Positions 11,432 to 60,029 of a DNA stretch of 64,000 bases are shown here, piece after piece (within the stretch, counting starts at the first letter, position 1; each line of letters begins with the position of its first letter). The position numbers and the translations under genes are program-made. Below the pieces are notes generated by a model, which saw nothing but the letters and a program-made list of their open reading frames with translations, was not told the DNA's origin and did no database searches. The stretch lies in assembly GCF_055900595.2 (NCBI RefSeq), contig NZ_CM148325.1; one strand, written 5' to 3'.

Positions 11432-11463
11432 TAATAACAAAACGCTATCACTGACGGTAGAAT

Positions 11464-13194: not shown

Positions 13195-13197
13195 CGC

Positions 13198-14869: not shown

Positions 14870-14875
14870 GCTTTA

Positions 14876-15910: not shown

Positions 15911-15946
15911 AGTCTGGTAAGCACTGTTGCCGATAATTTCATCTTT

Positions 15947-17247: not shown

Positions 17248-17290
17248 TGAGGTGTACTGGCAATAGCGGACACAACCATTTGTTCTTTTT

Positions 17291-19679: not shown

Positions 19680-19698
19680 CCCGTTGTAAAGTGAGGAT

Positions 19699-32790: not shown

Positions 32791-33737
32791 TACAGACCGA
32801 CCTCCGTGAAGAAGTGATGACGATCCGCCATCACCATGCGCGAGCGCTTATGTGGGAAGTCGAACTCTTTAATTGTCCGGTATCCCGCAGGCTCAAGATG
32901 GCGGAACAGGCGCAGGTTATCGGTGCGTGGCTCCAGTACTGTGCGCTGCGTACGGGGCTCATCCAGCAGCAGGTAATGTGTCAGCCCGCGCAGCCAGCTT
33001 TGCACATAGTGGGCCCCGCGCCATTGCTGTTCACCAACCAGCAGATGCAGGCCACGGTCAAAGGGCTGCCACGAATAGTGACGACCAATGCGGTCTTCCG
33101 CCGCCCAGTAGATTTCGAAATAGCTGAATGGCCGATCGTCGAAGCACCCAATCAGCGGGAATGCATGTTTACCGGTGAGCTGGCGCTCCAGATAGGCGGT
33201 CTGTACCTCCAGTGAGCCACTTTGCTCCCAGAAATACTCAACGCGCGGATCATTCATCCAGCGGGTGAAACGTTCTGCATCAGAAACGGGATCGGCAATG
33301 CGGAAACTCAGCATCCTGCGAATACGTGGATCGTAACGGCGGTAAACCTCACCCTGTGGACGGGGTGGGCGCTGCGGGAAATAAATCTCACGCTCTGCAT
33401 CAAAAACCATTTCACCGGAGGCCCGGTTTGCCGGTGAACTCAACCATAACGGTAACTGCCAGAAGGCAGTACGATGGATAATGTCGCTTTTTACCTGCCC
33501 AAAAAGCGTCAGCGCCTGTGGCTCCTCACGCCATTCGGCCCAGGGGAGAGCCACTGCTGACAGTTGTGGAGCGGCGATAAATATCTGATCCAGCGCATCG
33601 CACAGCCACCCTGTCGGCAGCTCCCCGGGACAGTGCAACACCGCGCTATTGTCCAGTCCCCAGCCAAGATTCAGGGGCTTGTCGAGTTTTTCACAGCGCA
33701 GTCCATATCTGCTGTGAATAATGTTTGCCTCAGACAT
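32790..33737 (-). CDS. iucB: N6-hydroxylysine acetyltransferase IucB
   Basis: 315 aa, acetyltransferase in conserved operon position between iucA and iucC. Confidence 0.9.
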   Translation of the reverse strand: MSEANIIHSRYGLRCEKLDKPLNLGWGLDNSAVLHCPGELPTGWLCDALDQIFIAAPQLSAVALPWAEWREEPQALTLFGQVKSDIIHRTAFWQLPLWLSSPANRASGEMVFDAEREIYFPQRPPRPQGEVYRRYDPRIRRMLSFRIADPVSDAERFTRWMNDPRVEYFWEQSGSLEVQTAYLERQLTGKHAFPLIGCFDDRPFSYFEIYWAAEDRIGRHYSWQPFDRGLHLLVGEQQWRGAHYVQSWLRGLTHYLLLDEPRTQRTVLEPRTDNLRLFRHLEPAGYRTIKEFDFPHKRSRMVMADRHHFFTEVGL

Positions 33738-35462
33738 TCAGACCTCCTGAGCCTGCAGCGGGTTAGCGAAATCGAAATAGATCACCGAAGGGTCAACAAT
33801 GGTGTTCTCGTTATGATCGTTCAGATAACAGAAAAAGTTACCTTTTACGTTCCAGTACGGACTTTCCAGCACGTAGTTGAGACAGGTTTTATGAGTCACC
33901 TGATCACGCACTTCAGCCAGCGATGCTCGTACACGAGCCATCAGATTCGATTCGCTGTCCAGCCCGGCAGCCCCCAGCGCAGCGGTCACAGCAAAAGTGG
34001 AGTTAACCAGCAGGTAATAAGGGAAATAGCGCAGCAACTGCTCATGGGTGAAAATATTTTCCGCCTGCGCCTCGCCAATAGAATCGAGCCAGTCTGTCGC
34101 GTGAGGCATAAAAGCGCTGCCCTGACAGTCACGGTAAATAAATCCGACCGGCAGATCCCCAAGCATCTGGACAAGAATATTTTGCTGATGCGCCAGCAGC
34201 ACCAGGCCGTAATCCGCTTCAGCCGTAAACAGCGGCTTTAGCACTTGCTGACAGTATGCATCGACCCATGCATGGGCGGCCTGTTGCACAGTGATACCGA
34301 GGCGATCGCTCAGGCGTTTTACCGCCGAAACCAGCAGCGAATCACCGCCATCAGGTGCGGCCTGAGTCAGGGAGACCAGTACGTTAGTCTGGCTTTTCGG
34401 CTGATCCACCAGCAGATTTTCACGCAGGGCAAACAGACTTTCCTGCATGATGTTGCCGTTAAGATCGCGCAGCCCGGCCCAGCCATCCTCCTGCATTACC
34501 CGGAAAGTCGGGAAGCGGACCTGTAGCATCTGCCAGCCGTCGGTTTGAGCCAGGCGTGCCAGGCGCATCCCACGCTTCACTTCTTTCACGGACAGAGTAC
34601 GGATGGAGTTGGTCAGCCGTACGCTCAGGGAGAACTTGATCATATCGCGGCTGGTGGCACAGTAGAGGGAACGGGAAGAGGTGGTCGGCAGCCACGACGT
34701 GCCGGCCTCACCTAAGTCTTTAATCAGCCCTTTAGCAACAAGTGCCTGGCACCACCCCTGCTGCAAAAGATATTCCCCCTGCCACGGGTGCAACGGGAAC
34801 AGCCATTGGTTGTCACTTAATTCGTTGAGTAACTGAGGCGCATTCTCTGCGGCAAATCGCGTCAGCCGCTGTTGAAGGTTGAGATGCAAACTTTCACCGG
34901 CGATTTGCGTTTTATCCACCGAAAACCACCGCAGTGGGAAGTGGGGTGCCATATCAGGCAGGTAGCGTTCAGCCTCCCGCCGGTTAAACGGTTCATGAGA
35001 CTTAGGCGCAGGGTGGAAAGCGTGTCCTGTCAGCAGCGCCTGCTCAGCCTCGCCAAAATTCAACGCTTTTTCACGCAGAGCGGCCCAGTCATGACGGGCA
35101 TCAATTGCCTGTTGCGTATGGACATGGCTTTCCAGCACGCGCTGGTGGAAAGTTTCGCAGAGGGGAACGGGCAGAAACAGTTGATGGCGTAGCTTATCAA
35201 TAATAAGCCGGGAGAGAGTGGTAAAGTCGACAGGATAACTGCCTGATGCCGTGACCAGACGTGCAGGAAATGCAAAGCGGTGATGCTGGGTTGGGGAGAA
35301 ATAAGCCACTCTGAAATGGAGCGATTTCTGCTCATCCAGCGGGATGAGCAATTCGTCTGGCGGGTATTCTGTCAGTTTCCAGTCTGTGGTTTCACGAATC
35401 AGTGCATTCAGGAAGCACTGCGCAGCCACATCTGTGGCTGGTTTTTCAGAGGGCAGGGTCAT
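33738..35462 (-). CDS. iucA: aerobactin synthetase IucA
   Basis: Matches IucA from MTLPSEKPATDVAAQCF.. onward; the 21 codons upstream in the track ORF lie in the AT-rich promoter/Fur-box region. Confidence 0.9.
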   Translation of the reverse strand: MTLPSEKPATDVAAQCFLNALIRETTDWKLTEYPPDELLIPLDEQKSLHFRVAYFSPTQHHRFAFPARLVTASGSYPVDFTTLSRLIIDKLRHQLFLPVPLCETFHQRVLESHVHTQQAIDARHDWAALREKALNFGEAEQALLTGHAFHPAPKSHEPFNRREAERYLPDMAPHFPLRWFSVDKTQIAGESLHLNLQQRLTRFAAENAPQLLNELSDNQWLFPLHPWQGEYLLQQGWCQALVAKGLIKDLGEAGTSWLPTTSSRSLYCATSRDMIKFSLSVRLTNSIRTLSVKEVKRGMRLARLAQTDGWQMLQVRFPTFRVMQEDGWAGLRDLNGNIMQESLFALRENLLVDQPKSQTNVLVSLTQAAPDGGDSLLVSAVKRLSDRLGITVQQAAHAWVDAYCQQVLKPLFTAEADYGLVLLAHQQNILVQMLGDLPVGFIYRDCQGSAFMPHATDWLDSIGEAQAENIFTHEQLLRYFPYYLLVNSTFAVTAALGAAGLDSESNLMARVRASLAEVRDQVTHKTCLNYVLESPYWNVKGNFFCYLNDHNENTIVDPSVIYFDFANPLQAQEV

Positions 35463-35502
35463 AGTCAAACAGCTCCCACACAGCAAAATAATAACAATTA
35501 TG

Positions 35503-35535
35503 TCAATAATGATTCTCATTATCAATAATAAATGT
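35503..35535. promoter_or_regulatory. Fur box / iron-regulated promoter of iucABCD-iutA (divergent from shiF)
   Basis: CAATAATGATTCTCATTATCAATAATAA closely matches Fur consensus, about 45-70 bp upstream of iucA start. Confidence 0.65.
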
Positions 35536-35597
35536 TATTGTCAGATAAATTAATTTTACAAATAAACACAATTAATACATGGAGTTGAAACATTATA

Positions 35598-36791
35598 ATG
35601 TCACCAGGGATCGAAGATACGCCCCAAAAACCACTGTCCTGCTGGCCACTTGCGTTCAGTGCCGGGCTTCTCGGTATCGGACAGAACGGTCTGCTGGTTG
35701 TGCTCCCTGTTCTGGTCATACAGACAAATCTGAGTCTGTCTGTATGGGCTGCCCTGCTGATGCTTGGCTCAATGCTGTTTCTGCCATCGTCCCCGTGCTG
35801 GGGAAAGCAAATTTCCCGTACTGGCAGTAAACCTGTGGTGTTGTGGGCTCTGGGAGGATATGGCATAAGCTTTACCCTGCTAGGGCTGGGAAGCGTGCTG
35901 ATGGCTACCAGCGCCATAACAACAGCGGTGGGACTGGGAATATTAATCATCGCCCGGATCGCCTACGGGCTGACCGTGTCGGCAATGGTGCCAGCCTGTC
36001 AGGTCTGGGCATTGCAGAGAGCTGGAGAAGGGAATCGCATGGCCGCTCTGGCAACCATCAGCTCCGGCCTGAGTTGCGGCAGGCTATTCGGGCCGCTGTG
36101 CGCGGCAGCAATGCTGGCCATTCATCCTCTGGCGCCACTGGGGCTGCTGATGGCAGCCCCAGTGCTGGCGCTGCTGATGCTGCTGCGGTTGCCCGGCACA
36201 CCACCACAGCCCACACCGGAGTGCAAGAGCGTCAGTCTGAAGCGGGATTGTCTGCCTTATCTGCTTTGCGCAATATTACTGGCTGCGGCGGTGAGCATGA
36301 TGCAGCTTGGACTTTCGCCTGCCCTTACTCGCCAGTTCGCCACGGATACCACCGCCATTAGCCAACAGGTGGCCTGGCTGTTGGGTCTGTCCGCAGTAGC
36401 TGCGCTTATCGCGCAGTTCGGGGTACTCCGTCCGCAGCGCCTGACTCCGGTGGCCCTGCTCCTGAGTGCCGGAGTGTTGATGAGTGGTGGTCTGGCTATC
36501 ATGCTCTCCGAACAGCTATGGTTGTTTTACCCGGGCTGTGCAGTGCTGTCATTTGGAGCAGCTCTGGCAACACCCGCTTATCAACTTCTACTGAATGATA
36601 AGCTGGCTGATGGCGCAGGCGCGGGCTGGCTCGCTACCAGTCACACACTTGGCTATGGACTGTGCGCTTTGCTGGTGCCGCTGGTATCGAAAACAGGTGT
36701 CGCAATCGCGCTGATTATGGCAGCATTATTTGCAACTATATTATTTACCATTGTGTCTGTATTTATCTGGCATTACCGTACTATCAAATAA
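35598..36791 (+). CDS. shiF: MFS transporter ShiF
   Basis: 397 aa 12-TM MFS protein divergently transcribed from iucA, as in SHI-2-type aerobactin islands. Confidence 0.8.
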   Translation: MSPGIEDTPQKPLSCWPLAFSAGLLGIGQNGLLVVLPVLVIQTNLSLSVWAALLMLGSMLFLPSSPCWGKQISRTGSKPVVLWALGGYGISFTLLGLGSVLMATSAITTAVGLGILIIARIAYGLTVSAMVPACQVWALQRAGEGNRMAALATISSGLSCGRLFGPLCAAAMLAIHPLAPLGLLMAAPVLALLMLLRLPGTPPQPTPECKSVSLKRDCLPYLLCAILLAAAVSMMQLGLSPALTRQFATDTTAISQQVAWLLGLSAVAALIAQFGVLRPQRLTPVALLLSAGVLMSGGLAIMLSEQLWLFYPGCAVLSFGAALATPAYQLLLNDKLADGAGAGWLATSHTLGYGLCALLVPLVSKTGVAIALIMAALFATILFTIVSVFIWHYRTIK

Positions 36792-36903
36792 AGATATGAT
36801 CATCACCTTACTGGAGTAAATCAGAGGATATGAGAGAGGACCTGCGTCTGATGAAAACATGTCAGGCAGTGTTCTGGCTTGCTGCCCCCGCCTGGATTTG
36901 CCC

Positions 36904-37809
36904 CTATATTTCCAGACATCTGTTATCACTTAACCCATTACAGGCCCGCTGCCGCAGATATTCCCGTGGCGAGCGATAACCCAACGCACTATGCGGATGC
37001 CATTCGTTATAATGCTCGAACGCCTCTGCAAGGTTCTTTGCTGCCGTTAACCCGTCTGGTTTGGGTATGATACTTATGTAGTCACGCTTTATCGTTTTCA
37101 CGAAGCTCTCTGCTATGCCGTTACTCTCCGGACTCCGCACCGCCGTGTTTTTCGGTTCAAGCCCCAACATCCGGGCAAACTGCCGTGTTTCATTAGCCCG
37201 GTAGCATGAACCATTATCCGTCAGCCACTCTACTGGAGACGCCGGAAGCTCGTTGCCGAAGCGGCGTTCCACCGCTCCCAGCATGACGTCCTGTACTGTT
37301 TCACTGTTGAAGCCGCCCGTAGTGACCGCCCAGTGCAGTGCCTCACGGTCACAGCAGTCCAGCGCGAACGTGACCCGCAGTTTTTCTCCGTTATCACAGC
37401 GGAACTCGAACCCGTCAGAGCACCATCGCTGATTACTTTCTTTCACAGCCACTCTGCCGGTATGTGCCCGTTTCGATGGCGGTACAGCGGTTTTTCGCTC
37501 AAGCAACAGCGCATTCTGGCGCATGATCCGGTAAATACGTTTGGCATTGATCGCAGGCATACCATCAAGTTCTGTTTGTCTGCGAAGCAGCGCCCATACC
37601 CGACGATAACCATATGTGGGTAGCTCTCCGATAACATGGTGTATACGGCGAAGCACATCCGTATCATCCGTGTGACGGCTGCGGCGGCCGTCCTTCCAGT
37701 CATCGGCTCGTCTGAGAATGACGTGCAACTGCGCACGCGACACCCGGAGACAACGGCTGACGAAGCTTACTCCCCATCCCCGGGCAATAAGGGCGCGTGC
37801 GCTATCCAC
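36904..37809 (-). CDS. insD: IS2 transposase OrfB
   Basis: 301 aa, near-identical to copy 1 InsD. Confidence 0.9.
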
Positions 37810-38132
37810 TTTTTTGCTCGCCCATATTCAACGGCTTCTTTAAGGAGTTCATTTTCCATCGTTTTTTTGCCGAGCAGACGCTGGAGTTCTTTAATCTGCT
37901 TCATGGCGGCAGCAAGTTCAGAGGCAGGAACGACCTGTTCTCCGGCAGCCACAGCAGTAAGACTTCCCTCCTGGTATTGCTTACGCCAGAGAAATAACTG
38001 GCTGGCTGCCACACCATGTTGCCGGGCAACAAGGGAGACCGTCATTCCCGGTTCAAAGCTCTGCTGAACGATAGCGATCTTTTCCTGTGTAGTACGCCGT
38101 CTGCGTTTCTCCGGCCCTAAGACATCAATCAT
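37767..38132 (-). CDS. insC: IS2 transposase OrfA
   Basis: Identical to copy 1 InsC in the track translation. Confidence 0.9.
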
Positions 38133-38840
38133 CTGTTCTCCAATGACTAGTCTAAAAACTAGTATTAAGACTATCACTTATTTAAGTGATATTGGTTGTC
38201 TGGAGATTCAGGGGGCCAGTCTAACGGTTTACGTTACGCCCTTAGCTACCTGGCTAAACAGGATCAGAAAGAACACGGTATTATTCTGATGCGTAGCAGA
38301 CTTCCCGAAAAAAGTAACCGCGGCCGACCACGACACAACTGAATTACAGCTGTATTAGAATTAAGTTTCCGTAAGTTGTTGGGAGGTGCTTGAGTTAATA
38401 GGCAGCAGAGGGGGCGCTGTAATCAGTGTAGGGGACCCGAATTTCTGCTGTGGTGCTTCAGTGGTTCGGATACAGGTAACGAATATGGTTCATAAATCTG
38501 ACAGTGATGAATTAGCAGCACTGAGGGAAGACATCACTTGAAGCTTATGGGATTGAATGGCGACGTAAACCGCAGAGTCCTGTGCAGTGCGTTTCCGTAT
38601 TATCCACGGATGAGAAAGTTGCGTTATTTCGTCGGTTGTTTCGTGGGCGTAGTGATGTATGGGGCCTTCGATGGGAAAGTAAAACTAGCGGAAAATAAAA
38701 GTACTCGCCTGCCTACGGACCTTTTTACTCAGGGTATTTTTGTTTTCCATAACGTTGCGTATTAACATGAAGGAGAACGAGGGGGATTAGGTAATCTCTT
38801 TCCATGAAAATACGCAAACGTTCATCACCGAAGTGAAAAA

Positions 38841-39269
38841 TCAGTTTTTGATATTTAAATAATTTTTCAAATCATATTTCAGCAGGACACTACCAGCACC
38901 TAACAGCAGCACATCTTTGATGACAAAACTGTCAACTTTTCCCAGTTGTGGTAACAGACTTAGTGTGACTAAACCTGTAACAATAACGATAATATCTCCC
39001 AGTATGCCAGCAGCAGGCCTGAAGAAGCCGATACTCAGTGCTAGAAAAGTGATAGTTTCTACTATGCCGAGGAAATAGCTCCCCCCATGAACACCAAACA
39101 TAATGTACAGGATATTCAGCCACGTGGGAGAAATCAGGGGCTTGAGGGCCATCACTTCAAAATCAAACCATTTATAGGTCCCGAAGAGCATAAATATTAT
39201 AATAACAGACAGGCGAAGAATAACTATGTCATAATCTGATTTAATGTAAACATTAATAAATTTTTTCAT
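38841..39269 (-). CDS. small inner-membrane protein, DUF417-like (YkgB/RclC-like)
   Basis: About 142 aa, four predicted TM helices; downstream of TetR gene on same strand. Confidence 0.45.
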   Translation of the reverse strand: MKKFINVYIKSDYDIVILRLSVIIIFMLFGTYKWFDFEVMALKPLISPTWLNILYIMFGVHGGSYFLGIVETITFLALSIGFFRPAAGILGDIIVIVTGLVTLSLLPQLGKVDSFVIKDVLLLGAGSVLLKYDLKNYLNIKN

Positions 39270-39308
39270 TTCATTCTCCGGGTGGAAAATTATATGCACT
39301 AAAAAGGA

Positions 39309-39869
39309 TTAAGTACGGGTATCAAGCATTTTAATTAAAGCGTTAACGGTTCCTGAATAGATATCATGTGGTGGAAGTCGATTTAACATCAGTGCCCCCT
39401 TTAGTGTAGAACAGACTATAACGGCGAGCTCATCCGGAAGAAGAACTGTTTTGAACTCTCCACTATTCTGCCCGGAGGTGATAATATCTTTAATCATCTG
39501 TATCTCCTGATGTGCCAGTTGACTTACAGCCTCCTGTAATTCAGGAGAAAACTGATGGCTGTCGGATAGCATGGCATAAATACCGCACATTTCCCCTCTT
39601 TCAGCACAACCAGCAAATGCATCAAGATATGTCCTGAGACGTTGTACACCTGAAGAAACATTATGGAGAGTTATATTAAGTCTATCAAATACTTCTGTTT
39701 TGTATTGGCAGTAGGCTATACCAAGATCAGTTTTCCTCGGGAAATGGTGATGAATACTGGCTTTTCTGATACCAATTTCTTTTTCCAGATCTGCGTAACT
39801 GAACCCCAAAAATCCGCGTTGCTGGATCAGAGTATCCGTTATGCGAAGTATATTCTCATAAGTAGACAC
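39309..39869 (-). CDS. TetR/AcrR-family transcriptional regulator
   Basis: N-terminal HTH ..GFSYADLEKEIGIRKASIHHHFPRKTDL.. typical of TetR family. Confidence 0.8.
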   Translation of the reverse strand: MSTYENILRITDTLIQQRGFLGFSYADLEKEIGIRKASIHHHFPRKTDLGIAYCQYKTEVFDRLNITLHNVSSGVQRLRTYLDAFAGCAERGEMCGIYAMLSDSHQFSPELQEAVSQLAHQEIQMIKDIITSGQNSGEFKTVLLPDELAVIVCSTLKGALMLNRLPPHDIYSGTVNALIKMLDTRT

Positions 39870-39910
39870 GGCTTTACCTGTTATGTATTAAAGGGACTAT
39901 TATACATATT

Positions 39911-40177
39911 TTAGCGATAGATAATGGCAGTTCCATCAAGTTTATTTTTTCCTCCCAATGAAGTGATTCGGAAATGAGAACCTCCTGCCTGCTCCGCTTT
40001 GTCTTTAAGCGCAGTTGCCACCTCTTCTGGTGTATATAGATTACCAACAGAAATATAGTCTGACGGCATCAAACCAACAACGTCCTGACGATTAATTTCA
40101 TCTGCAGCAGTTGCGTAGCCTGTCAGAATGAGACCAAGGGCGACAATGGTAGTGCAGATAACATAATTCATGAGCAA
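39911..40177 (-). CDS. YhcN/BhsA-like periplasmic stress protein (DUF1471)
   Basis: Signal peptide then DUF1471-like C-terminus ..KAEQAGGSHFRITSLGGKNKLDGTAIIYR. Confidence 0.55.
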   Translation of the reverse strand: MLMNYVICTTIVALGLILTGYATAADEINRQDVVGLMPSDYISVGNLYTPEEVATALKDKAEQAGGSHFRITSLGGKNKLDGTAIIYR

Positions 40178-50254: not shown

Positions 50255-51520
50255 TCACCTTTTCAGTGGATTGTTAACTTTTGCATATTCAAACGGACTG
50301 ATACACTCCTCCCTGTTTGCATCCAGAAAATCTGCCCACCATTGCAGCATAAGCCGACGTTCTTCCAGATGTTCTGCTTTATGAATATACGCGGCACGTA
50401 CTCCGTTGCGCTCCTGATGACTCATCTGACGTTCAACCGCATCTCTTGACCATAAGCCGGATTCAATCAATGCACTGCACGCCATCGCCCGGAATCCATG
50501 GCCACAGACTTCCTTGGTTGTGTCATACCCCATCACTCTGAGGGCCTTATTTACGGTATTTTCACTGATTGGTTTACGTGGGTCGTGTGCTCCCGTAAAG
50601 ATCAGACCATTTTCACCTGCCCATGTCTGAAGTTCTGCCAGTATGGCTACAGCCTGTTGGCTGAGTGGCACAAGATGTGGTGTTCGCATCTTGGAGCCCC
50701 GGTATGAAAATTTTACGCCTGGCAGAGGTTCGCGTTCGGCTGGAATAGTCCACATGGCATTGTCAATATCAATTTCAGACCAGCGGGCATATCTGAGTTC
50801 ACTGGAACGAATAAAAACCAGTAAATTCAGCATAACTGCCAGTCGGGTGACAGGCTGGCCTTTATAACCGTCAATACGCGACAGAAGTTCAGGCAGGCGT
50901 GAAAGATCCAGAGCAGGGCGATGCTGGCGTTTTACCGTGGTCAATGCACCAGCCATATCCAGAGCCGGGTTATATCTGATGATGCCAGACTGTACGGCAT
51001 AACGCATTACAGCAGATATTCTTTGCTGCAGACGACTGGCGATTTCATAAATTTGTTTAACTTCTGCAGCACGAACAGGGATAAGCAGATCCGGGGTACT
51101 GAGTGTTGTGATATCCCGGTTGCCGATAAAGGGGAAAACGTGAGTCTCGAGGCTTTTGAGTACTTTATCGCTGTGTGATTGTGCCCATTGTTTATTACTG
51201 GCATGCCAGCGTCGTGCAATATGTTCAAAAGAGAGCTGTAAATCAGGGACTACTTTTTTAGCTCTTTTCTGTTCGCAAGGGTCAACCCCCTCCGAAATCA
51301 GTTTTCGGGCCTCATCCCGTTTTGTACGAGCTTCGGAGAGAGAAACTTCCGGATACACACCAAGTGCCAGGGTTTTCTCCTTACCCAGAATACGATAACG
51401 GAGACGCCAGTAACGGGAACCATTAGGATGTACCAGCAGGAACATGCCAGCCCCGTCAGTGAGTTTATAAGCCTTGTCAGTGGGCTTTGCAGCCCGGATT
51501 TTTGCGTCAGTCAGTGCCAT
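50255..51520 (-). CDS. P4-type tyrosine integrase
   Basis: 421 aa; N-terminal MALTDAKIRAAKP..YKLTDGAGMFLLVHPNGSRYWRLRYR, C-terminal catalytic region (..HGFRAMA..) typical of P4-family integrases at tRNA loci. Confidence 0.9.
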   Translation of the reverse strand: MALTDAKIRAAKPTDKAYKLTDGAGMFLLVHPNGSRYWRLRYRILGKEKTLALGVYPEVSLSEARTKRDEARKLISEGVDPCEQKRAKKVVPDLQLSFEHIARRWHASNKQWAQSHSDKVLKSLETHVFPFIGNRDITTLSTPDLLIPVRAAEVKQIYEIASRLQQRISAVMRYAVQSGIIRYNPALDMAGALTTVKRQHRPALDLSRLPELLSRIDGYKGQPVTRLAVMLNLLVFIRSSELRYARWSEIDIDNAMWTIPAEREPLPGVKFSYRGSKMRTPHLVPLSQQAVAILAELQTWAGENGLIFTGAHDPRKPISENTVNKALRVMGYDTTKEVCGHGFRAMACSALIESGLWSRDAVERQMSHQERNGVRAAYIHKAEHLEERRLMLQWWADFLDANREECISPFEYAKVNNPLKR

Positions 51521-51717
51521 AGTTCAGCCTTCTGAATGCGTTAAAGAGGGTACAAATTCTGTCGAACTGGGGTATACCCGCAATTATACCCACACAATGG
51601 GGTTGATGTGGGGGGAATCTGGTTGAGTTCGGTAGAATTGATTTGGAGGCAGAACGCTTAAATTGTGGCGTTCTGAAACGAAAAACGGACCTCCGTGGAG
51701 GTCCGTTTATATGAATT

Positions 51718-51736
51718 TGGTGCCCGGACTCGGAAT
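51718..51736 (-). other. 19-bp repeat of tRNA-Phe 3' end (att-type direct repeat), not a complete tRNA
   Basis: TGGTGCCCGGACTCGGAAT is the reverse complement of the tRNA-Phe 3' end; sequence beyond diverges from tRNA; about 200 bp upstream of int. Confidence 0.75.
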
Positions 51737-51983
51737 GAAACTGGTTATATAACCAATTGTTTTGTATCGACTGTTTTGTCTTTGTTCTTTTTGGGGCCAC
51801 CAATGAGGCCCCCATGTGCAATTCGAATTCTTTTGACGCTATAATCCCTCTTTTTTGTGCTTTGTTGTAATCATTTTGTCTGGTTCGATATGCTGAATCG
51901 CGGAATCGAAGTAACAACAAAATACAGAGATTTATAAAATACCTGGCTACCTGTGTTAGGGAGCGTTAACGCACAGATTTTGT

Positions 51984-52310
51984 TTATGGCTGCCAGAAAT
52001 GATCTGATGGTTTGTCGTCTGGCTCTGCAAGTACCCTGTTGATATCCCGGGAACCATGAACGATACGTTCGATACGAACTTCAGTATCCAGTACCCTGAA
52101 CAGCAGAAGGTAACGACCATACGAACAACCTCTGATCCCTGCCCCTAACTCGGGTCTTTCTCTGTAGAGTACTGGCGATTCGGCTATCAACAGACATTGT
52201 TGGTAAAGCTCTTCGGTAAAACTGATTGCACGGACAGGATTATCCTGAGCGATCCAGTCACCTATAGCTTCAAGATCGTGTTCTGCTAATGGTGAAACAG
52301 TCAGTTTCAT
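51984..52310 (-). CDS. type II toxin, ParE/RelE family
   Basis: 108 aa; ..YGRYLLLFRVLDTEVRIERIVHGSRD.. ParE signature; 4-bp overlap with upstream antitoxin gene. Confidence 0.75.
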   Translation of the reverse strand: MKLTVSPLAEHDLEAIGDWIAQDNPVRAISFTEELYQQCLLIAESPVLYRERPELGAGIRGCSYGRYLLLFRVLDTEVRIERIVHGSRDINRVLAEPDDKPSDHFWQP

Positions 52311-52570
52311 ATTGGCTGTTCACCTTCTGCCATCTTTTTGTATTTGTGCGTCAGTCGCCCGAATACCTCTTCAGCACTTTTACTTTCACCGCTGTTGATG
52401 CCTGCGGTAACGGCGCTCTGGAGTGATTCAAGCTTTATCTGCTGTTCCCGTTCTTCCAGAGCACGAAGTCCGGCACGAATGACTTCACTTGTATTGTTAT
52501 ACCGACCACTTTCTATTTGTTCGCGGATAAACGTTTCAAAGTAAGGACTGAGGGATACACTGGTAGGCAT
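52307..52570 (-). CDS. type II antitoxin, ParD-like (RHH)
   Basis: 87 aa; ..YFETFIREQIESGRYNNTSEVIRAGLRALEERE.. typical ParD/RHH antitoxin. Confidence 0.75.
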   Translation of the reverse strand: MPTSVSLSPYFETFIREQIESGRYNNTSEVIRAGLRALEEREQQIKLESLQSAVTAGINSGESKSAEEVFGRLTHKYKKMAEGEQPI

Positions 52571-52641
52571 GGTGATTTTCTCGCCGATTGATTACTATCA
52601 ATTAATAATAGTTAATATTCGCGAATTGTAAAATACCTCTT

Positions 52642-53508
52642 TTATGCCTTGCGGCTTTTGTTCACTGTGCTTGCCAGGGCTTCCGGGTAGTGTCTGACAA
52701 TAATATCATTAAGCCTGTCAACCAGTTCTGGTTTCCTGAACGTGATGTGCGCGGAGCCCTTCTTAAAGTATCTGATGCTGAACATCTCATCTTCATAGTC
52801 CTCTTTACCCTGAACAGACCGGATGTGCTCATTCAGATGAATGGTGATGTTTTCCCGGTTGTCGGGGATCGGTTTGCCGCTGAACAGATACAGCATTCTT
52901 TCCAGGTCGGCAAGTCGATCTGCCTGTTGCCCGGTGATAAGATGAAACCCCCACCGGTCCCACCTCACCAGGTTGTTGACGATAATTTTACTGCCAAATT
53001 TACAGGGTGAATTGTTTTCGTAATTCCAGCTCAGTCCCCTGAAAACATTGATCACCCCACGCTCAAACACTTCATCTTTGTTCTGGTGCAGTTGTTCAAA
53101 TGTGCTCAGAATGTTCGCTTCACTGATTTCCGGAAAATTATCGTATTCCAGTGACCGGTACCATGTATCACGGGCCTGCGCATCCATTAATGACAGCATC
53201 CCGGAACGTTGCATCAGGTCACGCCAGATTTCGCGATCGAGATTGCGGGTGATGGCTTTCATTGCTGTTTCCGGTTTATCCATGAGCCAGCATCCGCAGC
53301 GAAAATCCTGTTTCATCGCCCAGTCCCGTGCGCTTTTACCACCAATGCTTTTTGTCAGTACTGAGATTTCAGTCAGTTGCCGGATAAGCGTTTCGGTTTG
53401 TTGCAGTGCTGCATTCCGTACCGTCACAACGTGTCGGATACTGGTGGAGCAGATAACGTCCGTATTCCCGGTGACCACTTCCGGATGGGAGATTGTGATG
53501 TTTGACAT
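52642..53508 (-). CDS. conserved CP4-type prophage protein (YafZ-like, DUF4942-like)
   Basis: 288 aa; family assignment from recall only. Confidence 0.4.
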   Translation of the reverse strand: MSNITISHPEVVTGNTDVICSTSIRHVVTVRNAALQQTETLIRQLTEISVLTKSIGGKSARDWAMKQDFRCGCWLMDKPETAMKAITRNLDREIWRDLMQRSGMLSLMDAQARDTWYRSLEYDNFPEISEANILSTFEQLHQNKDEVFERGVINVFRGLSWNYENNSPCKFGSKIIVNNLVRWDRWGFHLITGQQADRLADLERMLYLFSGKPIPDNRENITIHLNEHIRSVQGKEDYEDEMFSIRYFKKGSAHITFRKPELVDRLNDIIVRHYPEALASTVNKSRKA

Positions 53509-53592
53509 TATCGGTTTCCCTTTTGGTTTATAAACGAAAACGCCAGCCGTATTCAGGCTGGCGTCAGTGGAATGAAGTCTGGTGAGTAAGGC

Positions 53593-53790
53593 TCACCGGT
53601 TCTGTTGCAGAAGCTGCAGTTGGCGCAGGGTATGGATATCCTCCCTCGCCTGTTCAATGCAGGGCAGCAGTGCTGCCGAATCCGTTTTATCCTCATCGTT
53701 GTCAAAGATAATTCCCGATTCGCAGTCGATATTGTCCTGCAGCCACGCAATCAGAATATCCAGTGCTGTTTCCGTGGTTAATGATTTCAT
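53593..53790 (-). CDS. small hypothetical protein (65 aa)
   Basis: ATG at 53790 preceded by AGGAA; acidic small protein downstream of cbtA-region genes. Confidence 0.35.
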   Translation of the reverse strand: MKSLTTETALDILIAWLQDNIDCESGIIFDNDEDKTDSAALLPCIEQAREDIHTLRQLQLLQQNR

Positions 53791-53801
53791 GTTGTTCCTG
53801 G

Positions 53802-54290
53802 TTACCAGTTGAAAGTGGGTAAACCCGGCAGGCATTCAGCGCTGGCATCCAGATGAATGAGACTGACGCCATAACGTCGGGTAAGTGTGACAACCAGACA
53901 ACGGAACGTTTTTGACAGGCCCAGGCGCTTAAGCCGCAGAACCGGGTATGACCACGCATCGGTACGTAACAGATAGCCGCTACCTGTGAAATGAATCCAT
54001 TCTGATTCACCAACGTCACTGGTCTGATGCGACAGCGAGTACAGCCAGGCGTTATCCTTTTCCGTGATATGTGCGGTACTGCAGCGTATGCCGGCAAGGG
54101 TTGCAAACGGTGGTAGTGTGCAGGTTGACTGTTGGTCGGATTCCTCCACCACGCGGAGTGAATAACCGTTTTCAGCGACCTTGTTAATCAGTTCAGTGAG
54201 ATTAACACCATCGACGTCAACGACAATTTGCCCCATGTTCAGTGCCTGCACATTAATTCTGTCGGCTTCCAGCATCAGGGAAAGTTTCAT
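53802..54290 (-). CDS. hypothetical protein downstream of CbtA-like toxin (YeeW-region)
   Basis: Start overlaps cbtA-like stop (ATGA coupling); no recognised motif. Confidence 0.4.
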
Positions 54291-54661
54291 CGTTTCTCCG
54301 GATGCTTACCCAGGGTAATGTTATTTACCGTTCTGTAATTGTCGCGGGTCATCAGGCCGGTCGCCCGGCGAGCCCGGAGGATATCAATACTGTTTATTAA
54401 CTGAGAGCGGGGACAAGTGCTGAATCCCGGCTGGTCGGTACGCACCAGCGCGTATTTTTCCACGAGAAAATTCACCGCATCACACAGTGAAATGCCAGCT
54501 TCAATATGCTGCTCAATCACACGTTCATCGGCGAACGGTGTGTCATTCAGTGTAAGGCCGTAATGCTGGCCCAGTAGTCGGGAGAGCAGAGTCTGCCAGA
54601 TGGTGACGGGAGACGGGCAGCTCGATGCCTCCCGTACGTGTGTATCGGGTAATGTTTTCAT
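54287..54661 (-). CDS. CbtA/YeeV/YkfI-family toxin (cytoskeleton-binding, type IV TA)
   Basis: 124 aa; ..[55 protein letters not shown].. matches YeeV family as recalled. Confidence 0.85.
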
Positions 54662-54750
54662 ACTGAAGGTTTTCCTGATATGCAGAGATGAAAAATGGAA
54701 AAGTGGCGTGGTGAAAGCACCAGGCCGGAGCAGAAGGTTATTCCGGTGGT

Positions 54751-55119
54751 TTACTTTTTCGTTTCGGGCGTCGGATAAACAGCCAGATAAACGTAACCAC
54801 AGGAGCCGAGGGTGTCGGCTTCGCAGGTCAGCCCTTTCGCATACAGCGTGACGGTATGCTGATGTCGGGGATTCAGTTCACCGCTGGTGAGCATGAGTTC
54901 CAGTTGTTTCATCAGCAGCGGAAAGGCCTGGTCCAGATGGTATGCATCTGCGTCGCTGAAGCGGCCTCTGATACCGGCGCGGTCGGCAAGGTAATGCAGG
55001 CGGTTACCCTCCTGCACCAGACGGGCGCCAAAACAGGGCCTCACTGTGCAGGGAAGCCCCCACCAGGGGCGGTCGTGATTGTCGTCGGGATGAGTTATCC
55101 CGGAGAGTGTGTCTGACAC
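54751..55119 (-). CDS. CbeA/YeeU-family antitoxin
   Basis: 122 aa; [42 protein letters not shown].. matches YeeU family as recalled. Confidence 0.85.
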
Positions 55120-55168
55120 GATAAAATCCTCTCTGAAAAGTGGTTAAGAATGGTTTAACGATGACAGG

Positions 55169-55801
55169 TCAGCCGGTGCGCTGACCGGTTTCGGTGAAGA
55201 TGTATGCATTGATGAGAATGGCCTCATCCACAGCGGCGTCTGAGGTCATCTGGTCGTACTCGTTTTCCAGTTGACGGTACAGCCAGAAGGCCAGGTCGCG
55301 CAGGGCTTCGCTGACAGCGGCTTCCGCATCGGCTGTCATAGCCTGACCAGTCGGACTGTTCCGGGTAACAGTGATAACGGATGGCAGTAACGTCCCCGGT
55401 GGTGGATTTCAGCCTGCAGTTGCCAGAAGTTACGTTTCTGCACCGCCTGCAGGGCATCCGCGATACGATGAAGCTCACGGTTCTGCGGGGCATACTCCCG
55501 GACTCTCCTGGTTGTTGCTGACTGCCAGTGCCAGCGTCCTTCAAAACAGGCTCCGTCCCTGGCTGCAGAATCCGCTGAACCAGATGCACGGCTCTTCCAT
55601 AAACCTGCCGTTGCTGAGACGGATAACACGCTGGCAGAGGTCAATTCCGAAAATGCCACAGACCTCCCTGACGTCCTCATACACGTTTTCATACCAGTTG
55701 CTGTCAGCATGATGCTGACGGTACCCGTCGCGGGCTTTTTCCCGTGCCGGGCAGGAAAGTTCATCCAGCGTATACACTGTGATGGTGATAATTCTGCTCA
55801 T
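55169..55801 (-). pseudogene. disrupted ORF between YeeT-like and CbeA-like genes (three overlapping frame fragments)
   Basis: Natural-looking segments lie in frame A (55541-55801), frame B (55336-55764) and frame A again (about 55169-55339); suggests two compensating frameshifts or overlapping small genes. Confidence 0.3.
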
Positions 55802-55815
55802 CAGAATGCCCTGAC

Positions 55816-56037
55816 TCAGTTCAGGGTGACGCTCATCAGCCGGACATACGGGCCAAAACTGTCCTTACGACGTTCTGCAAACACAGCCAGCACACCGGGA
55901 ATATCCTGCACTTCACGACCGGTATACGTTTCAGTGCTGCCGTGCCAGCGGTATTTGCCGGTACAGAACGGAAAAAGACGGGATGCAGGATGCTGTTGGT
56001 GAATACGCATGGCTTCACCACGGGTGATGATTTTCAT
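55816..56037 (-). CDS. YeeT-like protein (DUF987)
   Basis: 73 aa, MKIITRGEAMRIHQQHP..; conserved position between RadC-like and antitoxin genes. Confidence 0.7.
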   Translation of the reverse strand: MKIITRGEAMRIHQQHPASRLFPFCTGKYRWHGSTETYTGREVQDIPGVLAVFAERRKDSFGPYVRLMSVTLN

Positions 56038-56105
56038 AATGGGATACCTCTGAAGACAGAAGATAAAAGTGAAAACAGGTGTGATGTGGTTGTGACGGTG
56101 ACGGG

Positions 56106-56597
56106 TTAAAGCAGACCGTGTTCGGCAAAGGAGAATACCTGGCTGCCACCGACTATCAGATGGTCCGGCACCCGGATATCCACCAGGGCCAGCGCCTGAA
56201 CCAGACGTTCCGTAATAAGCCGGTCTGCCTTACTGGGAGTGACTTCACCGGACGGGTGGTTGTGTGCCAGTATCACGGCGGCGGCATTGTGGTACAGGGC
56301 GCGTTTAATCACTTCCCGGGGATGGACTTCCGTGCGGTTGATGGTGCCGGTGAAGAGGGTTTCACCGGCAATCAGCTGATTCTGGTTGTTCAGATACAGC
56401 ACCCGGAACTCTTCACGCTCCAGTCCCGCCATGTTCAGAATCAGCCATTCCCGTGCCGCATGCGTGGAGGTGAAGGCCACGCCGGGTTCATGAAGATGAC
56501 GGTCCAGGGTTTTCAGGGCCCGCTGAATGAGGCTGCGCTCACCGGGTGTCATCTCTCCGGGCAGAAAGGAAAGTTGTTGCATTGTGCTTCTCTCCAT
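56106..56597 (-). CDS. RadC-like JAB-domain protein (YeeS/YfjY family)
   Basis: JAMM-like motif ..AAVILAHNHPSGEVTPSKADRLIT.. Confidence 0.85.
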   Translation of the reverse strand: MERSTMQQLSFLPGEMTPGERSLIQRALKTLDRHLHEPGVAFTSTHAAREWLILNMAGLEREEFRVLYLNNQNQLIAGETLFTGTINRTEVHPREVIKRALYHNAAAVILAHNHPSGEVTPSKADRLITERLVQALALVDIRVPDHLIVGGSQVFSFAEHGLL

Positions 56598-57083
56598 TCA
56601 GTCGATGATGCGCATAATGGCGCTGCATTCCGGATGCTGCAGGGCATAATCCCGCAGCCGGTAATAATGGACCGTCATGGCATAACACTCCGTACGACAG
56701 GCATGATGACTGTACGTCATCAGACAGGCAGCAATGCCGGCGGCTTCCGGGCTCATTTCAGCGCGGTTACCGTTCATGGCATTGAACAGTACCCATGTTT
56801 CGTCATCATCGTCATCCGGTTCGGGTGCCATAAATGCCCCGCCGTTGTTCAGGGTGTACAGATTCCAGATACCACCGCAGTAGTCTTCGCACAGACGGTC
56901 CATCCAGCCGAAGACACGGGGCTCCAGGGTCACCCACTGTGGAATGAGGCCAAAGTGCTGCGGCCAGAAGCTGATGCGCTGTTCATCAGGGACTATGGTG
57001 GCAACCAGCTGAGACTGGTTATTCCCTGATGCAGTAGTTACGGAAACAGAAGGTGTGGTGAAATTATGCGAAGAGGTTGTCAT
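56598..57083 (-). CDS. antirestriction protein (YfjX/YafX, ArdB/KlcA-like)
   Basis: ..RISFWPQHFGLIPQWVTLEPRVFGWMDRLCEDYCGGIWNLYTLNNGGAFMAP.. typical antirestriction family. Confidence 0.8.
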   Translation of the reverse strand: MTTSSHNFTTPSVSVTTASGNNQSQLVATIVPDEQRISFWPQHFGLIPQWVTLEPRVFGWMDRLCEDYCGGIWNLYTLNNGGAFMAPEPDDDDDETWVLFNAMNGNRAEMSPEAAGIAACLMTYSHHACRTECYAMTVHYYRLRDYALQHPECSAIMRIID

Positions 57084-57173
57084 GAGATTATTCCTTATAA
57101 AAAGTAAATGAATGGAAGACGTCCCGGGGACAGGGACAGACGTGAGCCGGACTGTACTTTCAGGGAAACGGCA

Positions 57174-57992
57174 TCAGCGCAGGCTCTCCAGCAACGTTTC
57201 CGCCATCACCCATAACGCGCGATTGAGCTTAATGTCGGTGTCAATGCTGTGAATGGCCCGGGTATGGATACGTTTTCCTTTTGCACTGCGACCGGAAATC
57301 CCGCCTTTCAGCATATTCTCCTGGATGGTCTGATAAGCACTCCACAGGTCCTTACCGTAATCCTCCCGGCGTCGTGGCGTCAGAATGTCGGCGGTGGTGA
57401 CGAGGTGATGTTCGTCACCATAACGGTAAGTCAGTGCCGCCTGTGCCAGCGCCTGGCGTGCCGGTGGCGGCAGGACCAGCGACTGCATGGCATCACGCTT
57501 TTCCTCAATCCGGTCAAAAACGCCCACCACTTCGTAAGCCCCTTCAATAACTTTCTCCACCACGTCTCCCCGGTGTGGAACACGCACTTCCCCCAGAGAC
57601 TGACCACAGACGCAGCCGTTCTGGCAGACGAACCTGAAGTAACCCGGCAGCATCTGGTAGCTGGAGGTACCGTCATGGGAGTTCAGCAGGATGATTTCAG
57701 GGACATGTTGTCCGTTTATCTCTCCGTCACGGCGCAGACGCAGCATGTGTTTGGTATACCCCCGGCGGCCCGGGTCACGTACGCGGGTCTGGCAGGCAAA
57801 GAAGGGCTGAAAGCCTTCCCGCTGCAGGCTTTCCAGCACGGTGATGGTGGGGATCCAGGTATAGTTCTCGCTTCTGGATGTGTGCTTATCTTCCCCGAAT
57901 ACGCTGGGGACGACCTGCATCAGTTCTTCGCGAGTTAAGGGGCGGTCACGGCGTATCTGGTTCGCATAACCAAAACGACTGGCTAATCGCAT
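57174..57992 (-). CDS. DUF932-family protein (YfjQ-like)
   Basis: 272 aa; conserved CP4-57 module position. Confidence 0.6.
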   Translation of the reverse strand: MRLASRFGYANQIRRDRPLTREELMQVVPSVFGEDKHTSRSENYTWIPTITVLESLQREGFQPFFACQTRVRDPGRRGYTKHMLRLRRDGEINGQHVPEIILLNSHDGTSSYQMLPGYFRFVCQNGCVCGQSLGEVRVPHRGDVVEKVIEGAYEVVGVFDRIEEKRDAMQSLVLPPPARQALAQAALTYRYGDEHHLVTTADILTPRRREDYGKDLWSAYQTIQENMLKGGISGRSAKGKRIHTRAIHSIDTDIKLNRALWVMAETLLESLR

Positions 57993-58082
57993 GATTTGCT
58001 CCTTATGAATGAGTTAGCGATATAAATGAAAAAGCCGCGCCTCCCGGAGAAGACGCGGCCTGATGGATGAAATGAATGAGGT

Positions 58083-58316
58083 TTATTGTCTGGGAAGCCC
58101 TTCACTGGCGAGCCACGCATTAAGTTGTTTGCCGGCATCGTATTCAAAATTCCAGCACCGCCAGCGCAACTGACCTTCAGCATTGTGGATAACCAGCCGG
58201 AAATGCGTTCCCTGGTCATTTTCGATAAACACATTGCGATAAGCTGTTGTGATGGCAACCGCCTGCTCTCGAGAGAAAGGGCCTTCGGGCAATAAAACAG
58301 GGTGACAGTCCGACAT
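58083..58316 (-). CDS. DUF905-like small protein (YkfF/YpjJ-like)
   Basis: 77 aa, ..[30 protein letters not shown].. Confidence 0.55.
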
Positions 58317-58321
58317 ACCGG

Positions 58322-58999
58322 CTATTTTCCGATAAATTCAACGCTGGCACCGGTGGCATTACCGTCAGCACCAACCGTGACGGTCACTTTGTCGTACGCA
58401 CGGTCTTCAGGATTGAACACTTCAAACTCAACCTTATTGCCTTTTACTTCGTAAGAGCCAAAATCAGCGGTTTCTGTTGTTTCCTCGTCATATTCCCGGG
58501 CGTATGCCTGCCGGGCAGCCTGCAGGACGGAATCTTTATTAATAGTGGTCGTCTGTTTCGGGGAAAAACCGGCAAGTGATGTGACAAATTTCGGACAGAC
58601 CTTCAGCATATCACCGCGGGTGAATTCCATTCGTACACCAAATGCCTGTAAAACGGACACATCACGCTCTGCTATGGAGTGAACGGCTTTTTTGACCATT
58701 TCCGGCGCCTGTCCGATTTCCACCTCAACAGCCCTGAATCCCGTCTGCTGATTACACATTTGTGATGTGGGGATCAGGTTACCGTTAATACTGATACGGC
58801 TGCCCAGGAGCGTCTGTACGCCATTCGGGCATCCCTGCATCAGGCCGGTAATACCAATCGTGCCATTTTTCAGCATTACCAGCGCCTGACCATCTTCCGT
58901 CATGGTCTGACACCAGCCGTTTTTGACAGCCCAGTTGCCGGCGGAGGCGGAGAATGATGCCACAGTGAACAGCAGGGGAAAAAGAGCTCTGGTATTCAT
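58322..58999 (-). CDS. hypothetical secreted protein
   Basis: Signal peptide [20 protein letters not shown] at internal Met (58999); no recognised domain. Confidence 0.5.
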
Positions 59000-59146
59000 G
59001 ACTGACCTCTGAAATGAACGTATGGTGTTATTGATAATGATGGAAGGTATGCAGTGACTGTTCAGGGAATGACGTAGCCGTATATTTAGTTTTCTGTTCA
59101 ACATATTGTCTCCATACCTGTCGGGACGGCTTTGGCAGGCCGGCGA

Positions 59147-59827
59147 TCACAGGTTAAAGGTGTTGATAAGTTTATGGATGAAAGAGAAATGTGGCAGGGC
59201 GGAGATAAAACGCTCTTCAGCGACCAGACTGTGGATGTGGCCTCTCCGTTCAAACCGTTCTGATGTCAGGCTGACTGATTTGATATCTGCCAGAGGAAAG
59301 ACCTGCAGTTTTCCCTTCTGTAACGCGATCAGATACCAGCTACCGCTGTAATAAATGAGCCGGCAGGGCTCCAGTGACGGATACCATCGCTCAGCCATCA
59401 GAGAGATGTGGATACACTGTCTTATTGCCAGGATGAGTTGCGAGAAACACTCGGGGAACGTTGCAGTGATATCCGGCGCCGGTAGCCAGATAAGGCAGGG
59501 AGAGGGCTCCTGGTTGTCGGTAAGACAGGTTATCAGTCGTCCGTTCCGGAGCGGAAGTATCCGTGCGATCCCCGTATTCTGTATAAAAGAAAGCATTTCA
59601 GGGATCGCACCTGGGCTGCTCTGTCGTCTGAGGCTGTACCTGCCATTTCTGTACTCTAAATCCAGGTGAACCAGACGCTGATGAAAATCGCGCTGTAAAG
59701 TACGTTCTGTAACGCCAAATTCATCTGACAGTGTTTTTAGTGACAGAGATTCTCCGGCCATCAGTCGGCTGATAATGAGTGATAAGCGAACCGCCAGGCG
59801 ATCATGCCGGGAACGATTATCAGACAT
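59147..59827 (-). CDS. YfjR-like transcriptional regulator (HTH plus WYL-type domain)
   Basis: N-terminal HTH (..LSLIISRLMAGESLSLKTLSDEFGVTERTLQRDF..), about 226 aa. Confidence 0.7.
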   Translation of the reverse strand: MSDNRSRHDRLAVRLSLIISRLMAGESLSLKTLSDEFGVTERTLQRDFHQRLVHLDLEYRNGRYSLRRQSSPGAIPEMLSFIQNTGIARILPLRNGRLITCLTDNQEPSPCLIWLPAPDITATFPECFSQLILAIRQCIHISLMAERWYPSLEPCRLIYYSGSWYLIALQKGKLQVFPLADIKSVSLTSERFERRGHIHSLVAEERFISALPHFSFIHKLINTFNL

Positions 59828-60029
59828 AGATGTGCACTCCGTAAGAAAACATCTTTTATTTCATAATGTTATTATGCATCATGATGTTGAAAGGATGTGT
59901 CGCATCCGAATAATCAGGAATAAAATGCAGCAGAAAAAATATTCCTTTAATTATCTGATTTTTAAGCAGGGTTTCATAAAAAGAAGAATGCTTGTTAATC
60001 CAGCGACACATCCTGTCGGCGTGAGTGTG

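Follow-up and report, generated by a model that had tools for sequence, protein, structure and literature searches.

Tandem islands at pheV

Biggel et al. 2020 (PMC7686366) describe a papGII+ 'type IV' PAI of CC73-L4 that is "integrated adjacent to a PAI-ABU83972-pheV-like island" at pheV. The part of that paper concerned with this arrangement consists of one sentence, which does not treat the att anatomy. The stretch of DNA analysed here, 64,000 nucleotides of contig NZ_CM148325.1 (the window), resembles the CC73-L4 array as far as that sentence describes it, in that two pheV islands lie side by side and one of them is an iuc-sat-iha island of the ABU83972/EC958 type. We refer to this island as island B, to its neighbor as island A, and to their integrases as int2 and int1, respectively. 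In genome MS15046, our proxy for the outer ends of the array, papG-II lies in the tRNA-proximal island, like the papGII+ PAI of Biggel et al.; the window shows only the last 12 kb of this island.

The intP4.1_GI-pheV islands (EC958_GI-pheV, CFT073, ABU 83972 and Nissle; PMC11537424) share with island B the integrase, identical to that of ST131, and the same modules, and have the same attR as the proxy. The modules of GI-pheV, including shiF-iuc-iutA-sat and nan, and the imperfect 19-bp attR of the intP4.1 islands, TTTCATTCCGATTCCGGGCACCA, have been defined (PMC11537424). That definition places intP4 immediately beside pheV, whereas int2 abuts a 19-bp stub of the tRNA gene and is separated from pheV by island A, over a distance of ~63 kb in MS15046 and ~84 kb in TUM10828. 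In the O103:H2 strain 12009, LEE is located downstream of the attR of GI-pheV, which was read as an independent acquisition (PMC11537424). A second element thus follows an internal attR at pheV in strain 12009, as it does here, but the elements differ, LEE in one case and a UPEC island in the other.

Tandem integrative elements are known for SGI1 (PMC2297512), for the asn tDNA islands of K. pneumoniae (PMC4891358), and from reviews of ICEs and IMEs (PMC5704250, PMC5812530). These arrays occupy one att site, have direct core repeats between the elements, and contain an attP-like internal junction, as in the window. They belong to other integrase families and other hosts, whereas the array described here combines distinct integrases, 42% identical to each other, on the same 19 nt. 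The configuration is already known: it is a textbook result of repeated integration at a tRNA hotspot and was previously noted for pheV. A published anatomy of a pheV tandem junction was not found in the literature, and a literature search for VR50 together with pheV gave no match. The site analysed here is very probably the internal att junction of two different tRNA-Phe islands in tandem at pheV, the outer ends of the array being deduced from relatives.

The att core

The junction is centered on a copy of the 3' end of tRNA-Phe:

51718..51736, minus strand: att core, 19-bp direct repeat, exact copy of the tRNA-Phe 3' end

On the plus strand, positions 51718-51736 read TGGTGCCCGGACTCGGAAT. 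Alignment with intact pheV and pheU shows that this is exactly the reverse complement of the 19 nt at the 3' end of tRNA-Phe. The 19-mer takes in the AUU of the T-loop, the 3' strands of the T-stem and acceptor stem, and ACCA. The block of identity with tRNA-Phe is 19 nt long, extends from the T-loop AUU to the CCA end, and is the 3' part of a tRNA, as in P4-type targets. Williams is said to have distinguished, in 2002, a T-loop class in which the tRNA identity block begins in the T-loop. The 19-mer is unique in the 64-kb window with up to three mismatches allowed, and the chance expectation is 0.01 matches. Neither ARAGORN nor Rfam identifies a complete tRNA gene in the whole window. The original prediction, made from the letters of the window, had proposed both the 19-bp copy and the lack of a complete tRNA, and both proposals hold. 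It had also named an adjacent intact tRNA, with the 19-bp match misaligned, as an outcome that would overturn it; there is no intact tRNA at the junction.

We aligned five sequences, representing the window, the intact pheV and pheU loci, and the island ends. All of them share exactly the 19-mer, and the breakpoints of all aligned sequences, determined against the intact pheV and pheU genes, coincide with its inner end. Beyond the 19-mer, the intact tRNAs run on as ...AATCGAACC, and both island ends as ...AATGAAACTGG. The junction has the form of the island A distal arm, the 19-bp core, and the island B integrase-proximal arm, without a tRNA body. Judged from this alignment, the 19-mer at 51718-51736 is the attR of island A fused to the attL of island B.

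Island B and its integrase

The DNA to the left of the core is organized as follows:

1..51717, minus strand: island B, GI-pheV/PAI-ABU83972-pheV-type, running on past window position 1 (ORFs, NCBIfam)
400-7461, island B: nan/sialate module (ORFs, NCBIfam matches)
9341-11431, island B: iha (ORFs, NCBIfam matches)
22649-26548, island B: sat (ORFs, NCBIfam matches)
27491-36791, island B: shiF-iucABCD-iutA, aerobactin (ORFs, NCBIfam matches)
48956..50029, minus strand: TPR-repeat protein gene, immediately after int2 (ORF, weak TPR match)
50255..51520, minus strand: int2, intact P4-type tyrosine integrase of island B, 421 aa (ORF, Pfam, identity to P4 Int)

Island B also contains IS elements. The first 24 kb of the window are 100% identical to the islands of ST131, ST69, and ABU 83972, and island B carries both the shiF-iuc-iutA-sat and the nan modules that characterize intP4.1_GI-pheV. 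Island B corresponds to the GI-pheV of intP4.1 type described by Nhu et al. in 2024 (PMC11537424), alias the PAI-ABU83972-pheV-like island.

The start codon of int2 is 197 bp from the 19-mer, close to the ~200 bp at which a P4-type integrase had been predicted. The integrase is composed of the domains Arm-DNA-bind_3 (2e-29), Phage_int_M (1e-26), and Phage_integrase (8e-17), as identified by Pfam. Its ORF is of full length, and the match to the catalytic domain covers positions 8-170 of the 172 positions of the Pfam model. The protein is 54.9% identical to the Int of phage P4 over 97% of its length (E = 7e-152) and 100% identical to the integrase located beside pheV in one ST131 genome. We take int2 to be the intP4.1 allele of GI-pheV, a name that follows from its ST131 membership. 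The homologue of the product of the neighboring gene at 48956-50029 is annotated in RefSeq as 'tetratricopeptide repeat protein', and the position of the gene suggests that it is the one called shiA by Nhu et al.

Integrase-proximal arm and hairpins

The segment between int2 and the core contains two hairpins:

51521..51717, minus strand: integrase-proximal (P') arm of island B, 197 bp, with two hairpins; near-identical to the ST131 pheV-to-int segment
51573-51594, in the P' arm: tandem repeats TATACCCGCA/TATACCCACA (repeat analysis)
51650..51675, minus strand: second hairpin, 8-bp stem and 10-nt loop (RNA fold, inverted-repeat search)
51670..51708, minus strand: intrinsic-terminator-like hairpin (stem 51708..51683) with TTTTTCGTTT (terminator scan, RNA fold, inverted repeat)

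The P' arm presumably holds the promoter or operator region of the integrase gene. In the alignment, it is near-identical to the stretch of an ST131 genome (L007) that lies between intact pheV and the same integrase. In a spread sample of complete E. coli genomes, it adjoins intact tRNA-Phe in most rows. The hairpin at 51683-51708 has a perfect 12-bp stem, which begins 9 nt past the copy of the tRNA 3' end. The folding energy of the 101-nt hairpin region is -32.2 kcal/mol, with a z-score of -5.25 relative to shuffled controls. The terminator scan scored the hairpin as an intrinsic terminator, with TTTTTCGTTT positioned 3' of it on the minus strand, which is the strand of the tRNA fragment and of the integrase. 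Because TTTTTCGTTT follows the hairpin on that strand, the strong hairpin that had been predicted between the 19-mer and the integrase can be described more precisely as a terminator-like element.

Distal end of island A

The DNA to the right of the core is the end of a second island:

51737..64000, minus strand: island A, distal 12.3 kb in the window, continuing past 64000 towards pheV (collinear regions in MS15046, TUM10828, 2017.18.02CC, and 09A22)
51737..51909, minus strand: distal (P) arm of island A, ~173 bp, ~93% identical to the island B distal arm in MS15046
51984-52310, minus strand: parE (Pfam ParE_toxin, 9e-18)
52307-52570, minus strand: parD (NCBIfam ParD, 96.9 bits)
52642..60914, minus strand: yee-type module of island A (Pfam; RefSeq annotation of collinear TUM10828 and IR53017)
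54287-54661, yee module: CbtA (Pfam CbtA_toxin, 1e-61)
54751-55119, yee module: CbeA (Pfam CbeA_antitoxin, 9e-55)
60030-60914, yee module: YeeP-like GTPase (GTPase profile match)

The remaining genes of the yee module encode DUF4942, DUF957, DUF5983/YeeW-like, DUF987, JAB/RadC-like, antirestriction, DUF932, and DUF905 proteins and an HTH regulator. The parDE toxin-antitoxin pair (51984..52570) constitutes the last genes of island A. Beyond the ~93%-identical distal arms, the cargo of the two islands differs, with ParDE in island A and AbiE in island B. The right flank of the core matches the arm that closes a ParDE-terminated island at pheU in 09A22 (L005) and at pheV in 2017.18.02CC. The region from 51.5 to 64 kb is only ~96% identical to its best matches, and the islands A of relatives differ in cargo. 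PADLOC gave no match to a defence system among eight proteins of the distal end of island A, from ParE to the product of the DUF932 gene.

The original prediction assigned this region to the distal end of a CP4-57-like element with ParDE and CbtA/CbeA. The genes are present according to Pfam and NCBIfam, whereas the label is only loosely right, since the target is tRNA-Phe and not ssrA. A yee/yfj-type module including CbtA/CbeA is common to CP4-57 and island A, and the yee-type module of island A also occurs in CP4-44, CP4-6, and CP4-57-like elements. CP4-57, however, integrates at ssrA with its own integrase, whereas island A is bounded by the tRNA-Phe core and is located at pheV or pheU in relatives. 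Comparison of the modules and boundaries indicates that island A is distinct from CP4-57, with which it has one module in common.

The complete array in related genomes

We surveyed 5,426 complete E. coli genomes, among which the best match to the junction is 99.6% identical. The tandem junction is present in about 206-219 of them (~4%), in strains from varied hosts and sources. Since the window contains the middle junction only, the outer att copies, int1, and pheV were deduced from relatives, and the outer core copies are those seen in MS15046. This genome has matches to the junction of the window and to the elements on both sides of it.

The array of MS15046 starts with yqgA, pheV, int1 (396 aa), a TPR gene, the papG-II operon, ireA, and a yee module leading to ParDE. 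The perfect 19-mer follows, and after it int2, a TPR gene, iuc/sat/iha/nan, flu and yee modules, and an AbiE pair. The array ends with an 18/19 copy of the core (ATTCCGATTCCGGGCACCA), a different terminator hairpin, an IS110 relic, and the genes from kpsF through yghD. Island A of MS15046 is ~63 kb long and island B ~74 kb. The three core copies, the one in pheV with a private 1-nt difference, the perfect one in the middle, and the distal 18/19 one, all have the same orientation. Together with the preceding TTTC, the 18/19 copy is exactly the imperfect attR of PMC11537424, and is at the expected place.

The distal core and terminator of MS15046 (positions 28040-28109 of locus L010) match the sequence beside intact pheV in island-free genomes, and in some genomes the match extends into the same IS110 relic. 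The native pheV terminator is AACCCGCCCACAAGGCGGGTTTTT. Because the sequence after the 18/19 copy is that found after intact pheV in island-free genomes, the array ends at the native flank. Genome TUM10828 has the same plan as MS15046, with pheV ~84 kb from the junction. An int1-type integrase adjoins pheV or pheU in MS15046, TUM10828, 2017.18.02CC, and 09A22. The intact tRNA-Phe and second integrase that were to be sought past the right end of the window correspond in MS15046 and TUM10828 to pheV and int1, and the second att copy, whose absence was to count against the prediction, is present in MS15046 in front of the native pheV flank.

In MS15046, one nucleotide of the acceptor stem of pheV is deleted. 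We considered that the int1-type island damages the tRNA and rejected this as a general feature, since the deletion occurs in one assembly only and the next-best matches keep the base; the cause is probably an error in sequencing or a mutation private to this strain.

Genomes with one island

Each of the two islands also occurs without the other, as the comparison suggested with the prediction had called for. Island B is located directly beside intact pheV in 34 of 60 rows of an evenly spaced sample of ranked matches. Island A is alone at pheV in 2017.18.02CC, where the order is pheV, an int1-type integrase, cargo, ParDE, a core with a 1-nt deletion, the native terminator, and kps; the island A of this strain contains integrase fragments. 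In 09A22, island A is located at pheU, with an int1-type integrase at its head, between pheU and an old integrase relic. The int1-type arm adjoins tRNA-Phe in about 485 genomes, including SMS-3-5. The int1-type integrase is probably the 'most divergent intP4' of PMC11537424.

Across the window and its relatives, we observe two distinct P4-family integrases and a single shared core of 19 nt; each island is accompanied by its own arms, and the native flank closes the far end. Each island has its own integrase beside its tRNA-side core, int2 in the window and int1 in relatives. The flank alignment, the layouts of MS15046 and TUM10828, and the single-island genomes support the tandem array of two tRNA-Phe elements that had been proposed from the window.

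Proposed organization and mechanism

In the direction of the minus strand, the array is expected to begin with yqgA, pheV, int1, and island A, with variable pap/ireA/other cargo, yee, and ParDE, up to the 19-mer. It would continue with the terminator, int2, and island B, containing the shiA-like gene, IS elements, iuc, sat, iha, nan, and flu and yee modules, and would end with the imperfect 19-mer, the native pheV terminator, and kps. We propose that each island is led by its own P4-family tyrosine integrase and uses the final 19 nt of tRNA-Phe for recombination. Integration would take place by recombination of attP with att inside the 19-nt core and would displace the native pheV terminator to the far end. 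Island B appears to carry a replacement terminator, 9 nt past the rebuilt CCA end, so that the reconstituted tRNA gene would still be terminated. In the tandem, this hairpin follows only a 19-nt stub of the tRNA, and there it probably insulates int2 from read-through from parDE.

The three direct cores should in principle allow the excision of island A alone, of island B alone, or of both together. Compared at the sequence level, the middle junction would almost equal the excised attP of island B itself, the distal arms being ~93% identical. Because these arms are so similar, though the integrases share only 42% identity, either integrase might use any of the three cores. We nevertheless consider it rather unlikely that the hybrid junction is a working attP-like site. 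If it were, island A, island B, or the two together could excise, exchange partners, and transfer between pheV and pheU, and int1-type islands would preferentially stack onto occupied sites.

Order of arrival and alternative explanations

Our analysis somewhat favors island B as the first resident of pheV, with island A entering the reconstituted tRNA gene later. We lean to this order because the A-type island at pheU has entered on the tRNA side of an element that was there before it, and because island B beside the tRNA is the much commoner state. The three cores fail to discriminate the order, as the G-to-T change in the attR of island B and the 1-nt deletion in the attR of island A alone fit both.

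It is conceivable, although we do not think it probable, that island A was the first at pheV and that island B (sat/iuc) then integrated into the core of the island A attR, which would give the same architecture. This order predicts a hybrid junction identical to that seen, and island A alone does exist at pheV with its attR beside the native flank, which makes it a suitable target, as an attR has the full core and a P-arm half-site. However, the attR of the island A alone that we examined has a 1-nt deletion in the core, whereas the core of the tandem junction is perfect. At pheU, moreover, the int1-type ParDE-ended island sits on the tRNA side of a relic that is older and present in nearly all E. 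coli, and island B by an intact tRNA, as in most rows of the spread sample, is far commoner than island A alone.

It is somewhat doubtful that the tandem was imported or assembled by homologous recombination, through a large pheV-spanning fragment or through an exchange between pheU and pheV at the yee modules and P arms. Such recombination accounts for the spread of the array but not for its origin, as site-specific recombination must have taken place at some time to give a clean junction that is bounded by the core and has two complete arms. The ~93%-identical P arms and the yee modules present in both islands would provide the homology, and the presence of the junction in strains of varied hosts and sources is consistent with it. 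The same holds for the difference between island B, 100% identical to ST131-type islands, and island A, only ~96% identical to its best matches. Module-wise exchange has been stressed for GI-pheV and for the surroundings of the capsule locus (PMC11537424, PMC11488385). Homologous recombination may therefore have spread or reshuffled the array, the arms and yee modules being shared.

It is extremely improbable that the window contains a single island and that the 19-mer arose by chance or was left behind by a rearrangement or duplication within it. The window does hold only one copy of the 19-mer, and integrase fragments inside the island A of another strain show that such regions decay and rearrange. 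However, a chance match has an expectation of 0.01, both flanks are att arms found separately by intact tRNA-Phe or the native flank, the two integrases share only 42% identity, and the islands carry different cargo. The flank alignment, the native far flank, and the A-only genome effectively refute this reading.

Implications for island typing

With two islands in tandem as the preferred reading, the junction would mark the end of one virulence island and the start of the next, and the locus would be two islands rather than one giant island. Typing schemes that define GI-pheV as 'pheV + adjacent intP4', or that halt at the first direct repeat, would mis-size or mis-type such loci. Scoring the array as one very large island would affect ~4% of complete E. 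coli genomes. The integrase of the iuc/sat/iha island is still intact, and cores flank the island on both sides, the far one being known from relatives. With three direct cores and two intact integrases, this island could in principle move alone or with its neighbor.

An island relic at pheU

Nearly all E. coli genomes match a part of the query, and the sampled ones that are free of tRNA-Phe islands do so through a relic at pheU. K-12-like genomes match window positions 51604-51739 next to pheU, without an integrase. We rejected the possibility that the 114 bp beside the 19-mer (51604-51717) are the native flank of pheU, which would have shifted the boundary of island B, as they are followed by an integrase fragment in K-12 and are found at pheV only with an island. 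The 51604-51717-like sequence at K-12 pheU is a relic island arm. The relic keeps the 114-bp P' arm and both hairpins and is ~97% identical to window positions 51604-51717. Unlike the intact island B, it retains a 160-bp integrase fragment, annotated as a pseudogene, and no cargo. We take the K-12 integrase relic downstream of pheU to be yjdQ. The relic shows how old the island family is at tRNA-Phe.

Island remnants at tRNA-Phe loci

The pheU locus of K-12 (L006 2758-3190) is homologous to window 51604-51739, the segment that carries the 19-bp copy of the tRNA-Phe 3' end and the adjoining part of the arm of island B, the GI-pheV/PAI-ABU83972-pheV-type island. In K-12, pheU is followed by this 114-bp island arm containing both hairpins, next by a 160-bp integrase fragment, and finally by cadC. 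Matches to the query, of some kind, were obtained in 5,417 of the 5,426 genomes. Therefore, the arm and the integrase fragment at pheU appear to be the product of a very early decay of an intP4-type island, whose terminator now serves pheU. The K-12 relic is 12 bp shorter at the position of two tandem 10-mers, TATACCCGCA and TATACCCACA, which lie with a spacing of 12 bp at window 51573-51594, just upstream of the start of int2, the P4-type integrase gene of island B. The 10-mers are candidate arm-type sites of the integrase or a candidate int operator.

The interior of island A, the second tRNA-Phe island, contains two annotated tyrosine-recombinase fragments in strain 2017.18.02CC (L013 17576-17731 and 31982-32167), which suggest earlier rounds of stacking at pheV that have since decayed. 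A search of the island A locus of this strain for an additional core copy with at most two mismatches found none. The attR core of the lone island A at pheV in 2017.18.02CC (L011 5001-5018) carries a one-nucleotide deletion, CCGGGC to CCGGC, in agreement with the gapped repeats in PMC11537424, Table 1. The identical deletion is located inside the pheV tRNA itself in MS15046 (L009 31440-31460), where it is private to that assembly.

Gene content of the two islands

The families of islands A and B share a gene frame, as compared across window 48956-51520 and the MS15046 loci L009 31638-34303 and L010 24002-27855. In each family, an integrase gene and then a TPR-repeat gene come first; at the closing end, a yee module precedes a toxin-antitoxin pair that lies directly beside the att arm. 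The terminal pair is ParDE in island A and AbiE (DUF6088/AbiEii) in island B. Four open reading frames of island A, encoding 260, 226, 319, and 267 amino acids (window 58322-59827 and 61028-62847), have no NCBIfam match; the RefSeq annotation of their homologues is either hypothetical protein or HTH regulator.

An IS-rich segment of island B, flanked by aerobactin genes on one side and int2 on the other, contains three Rfam matches:

41870-41992, STnc490 sRNA
42490-42606, ALIL pseudoknot
43657-43835, AS-pc02 antisense RNA

The ALIL pseudoknot is a frameshift element of the IS3 family. Also in island B, window 45687-46458 and 47710-48481 form a perfect inverted repeat of 772 bp, the arms of which are two IS1 copies containing 167-residue open reading frames that match IS1 transposase. 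The 1,251 bp between the copies encode a MarR/MprA-like regulator (46711-47262), and the arrangement resembles a composite transposon.
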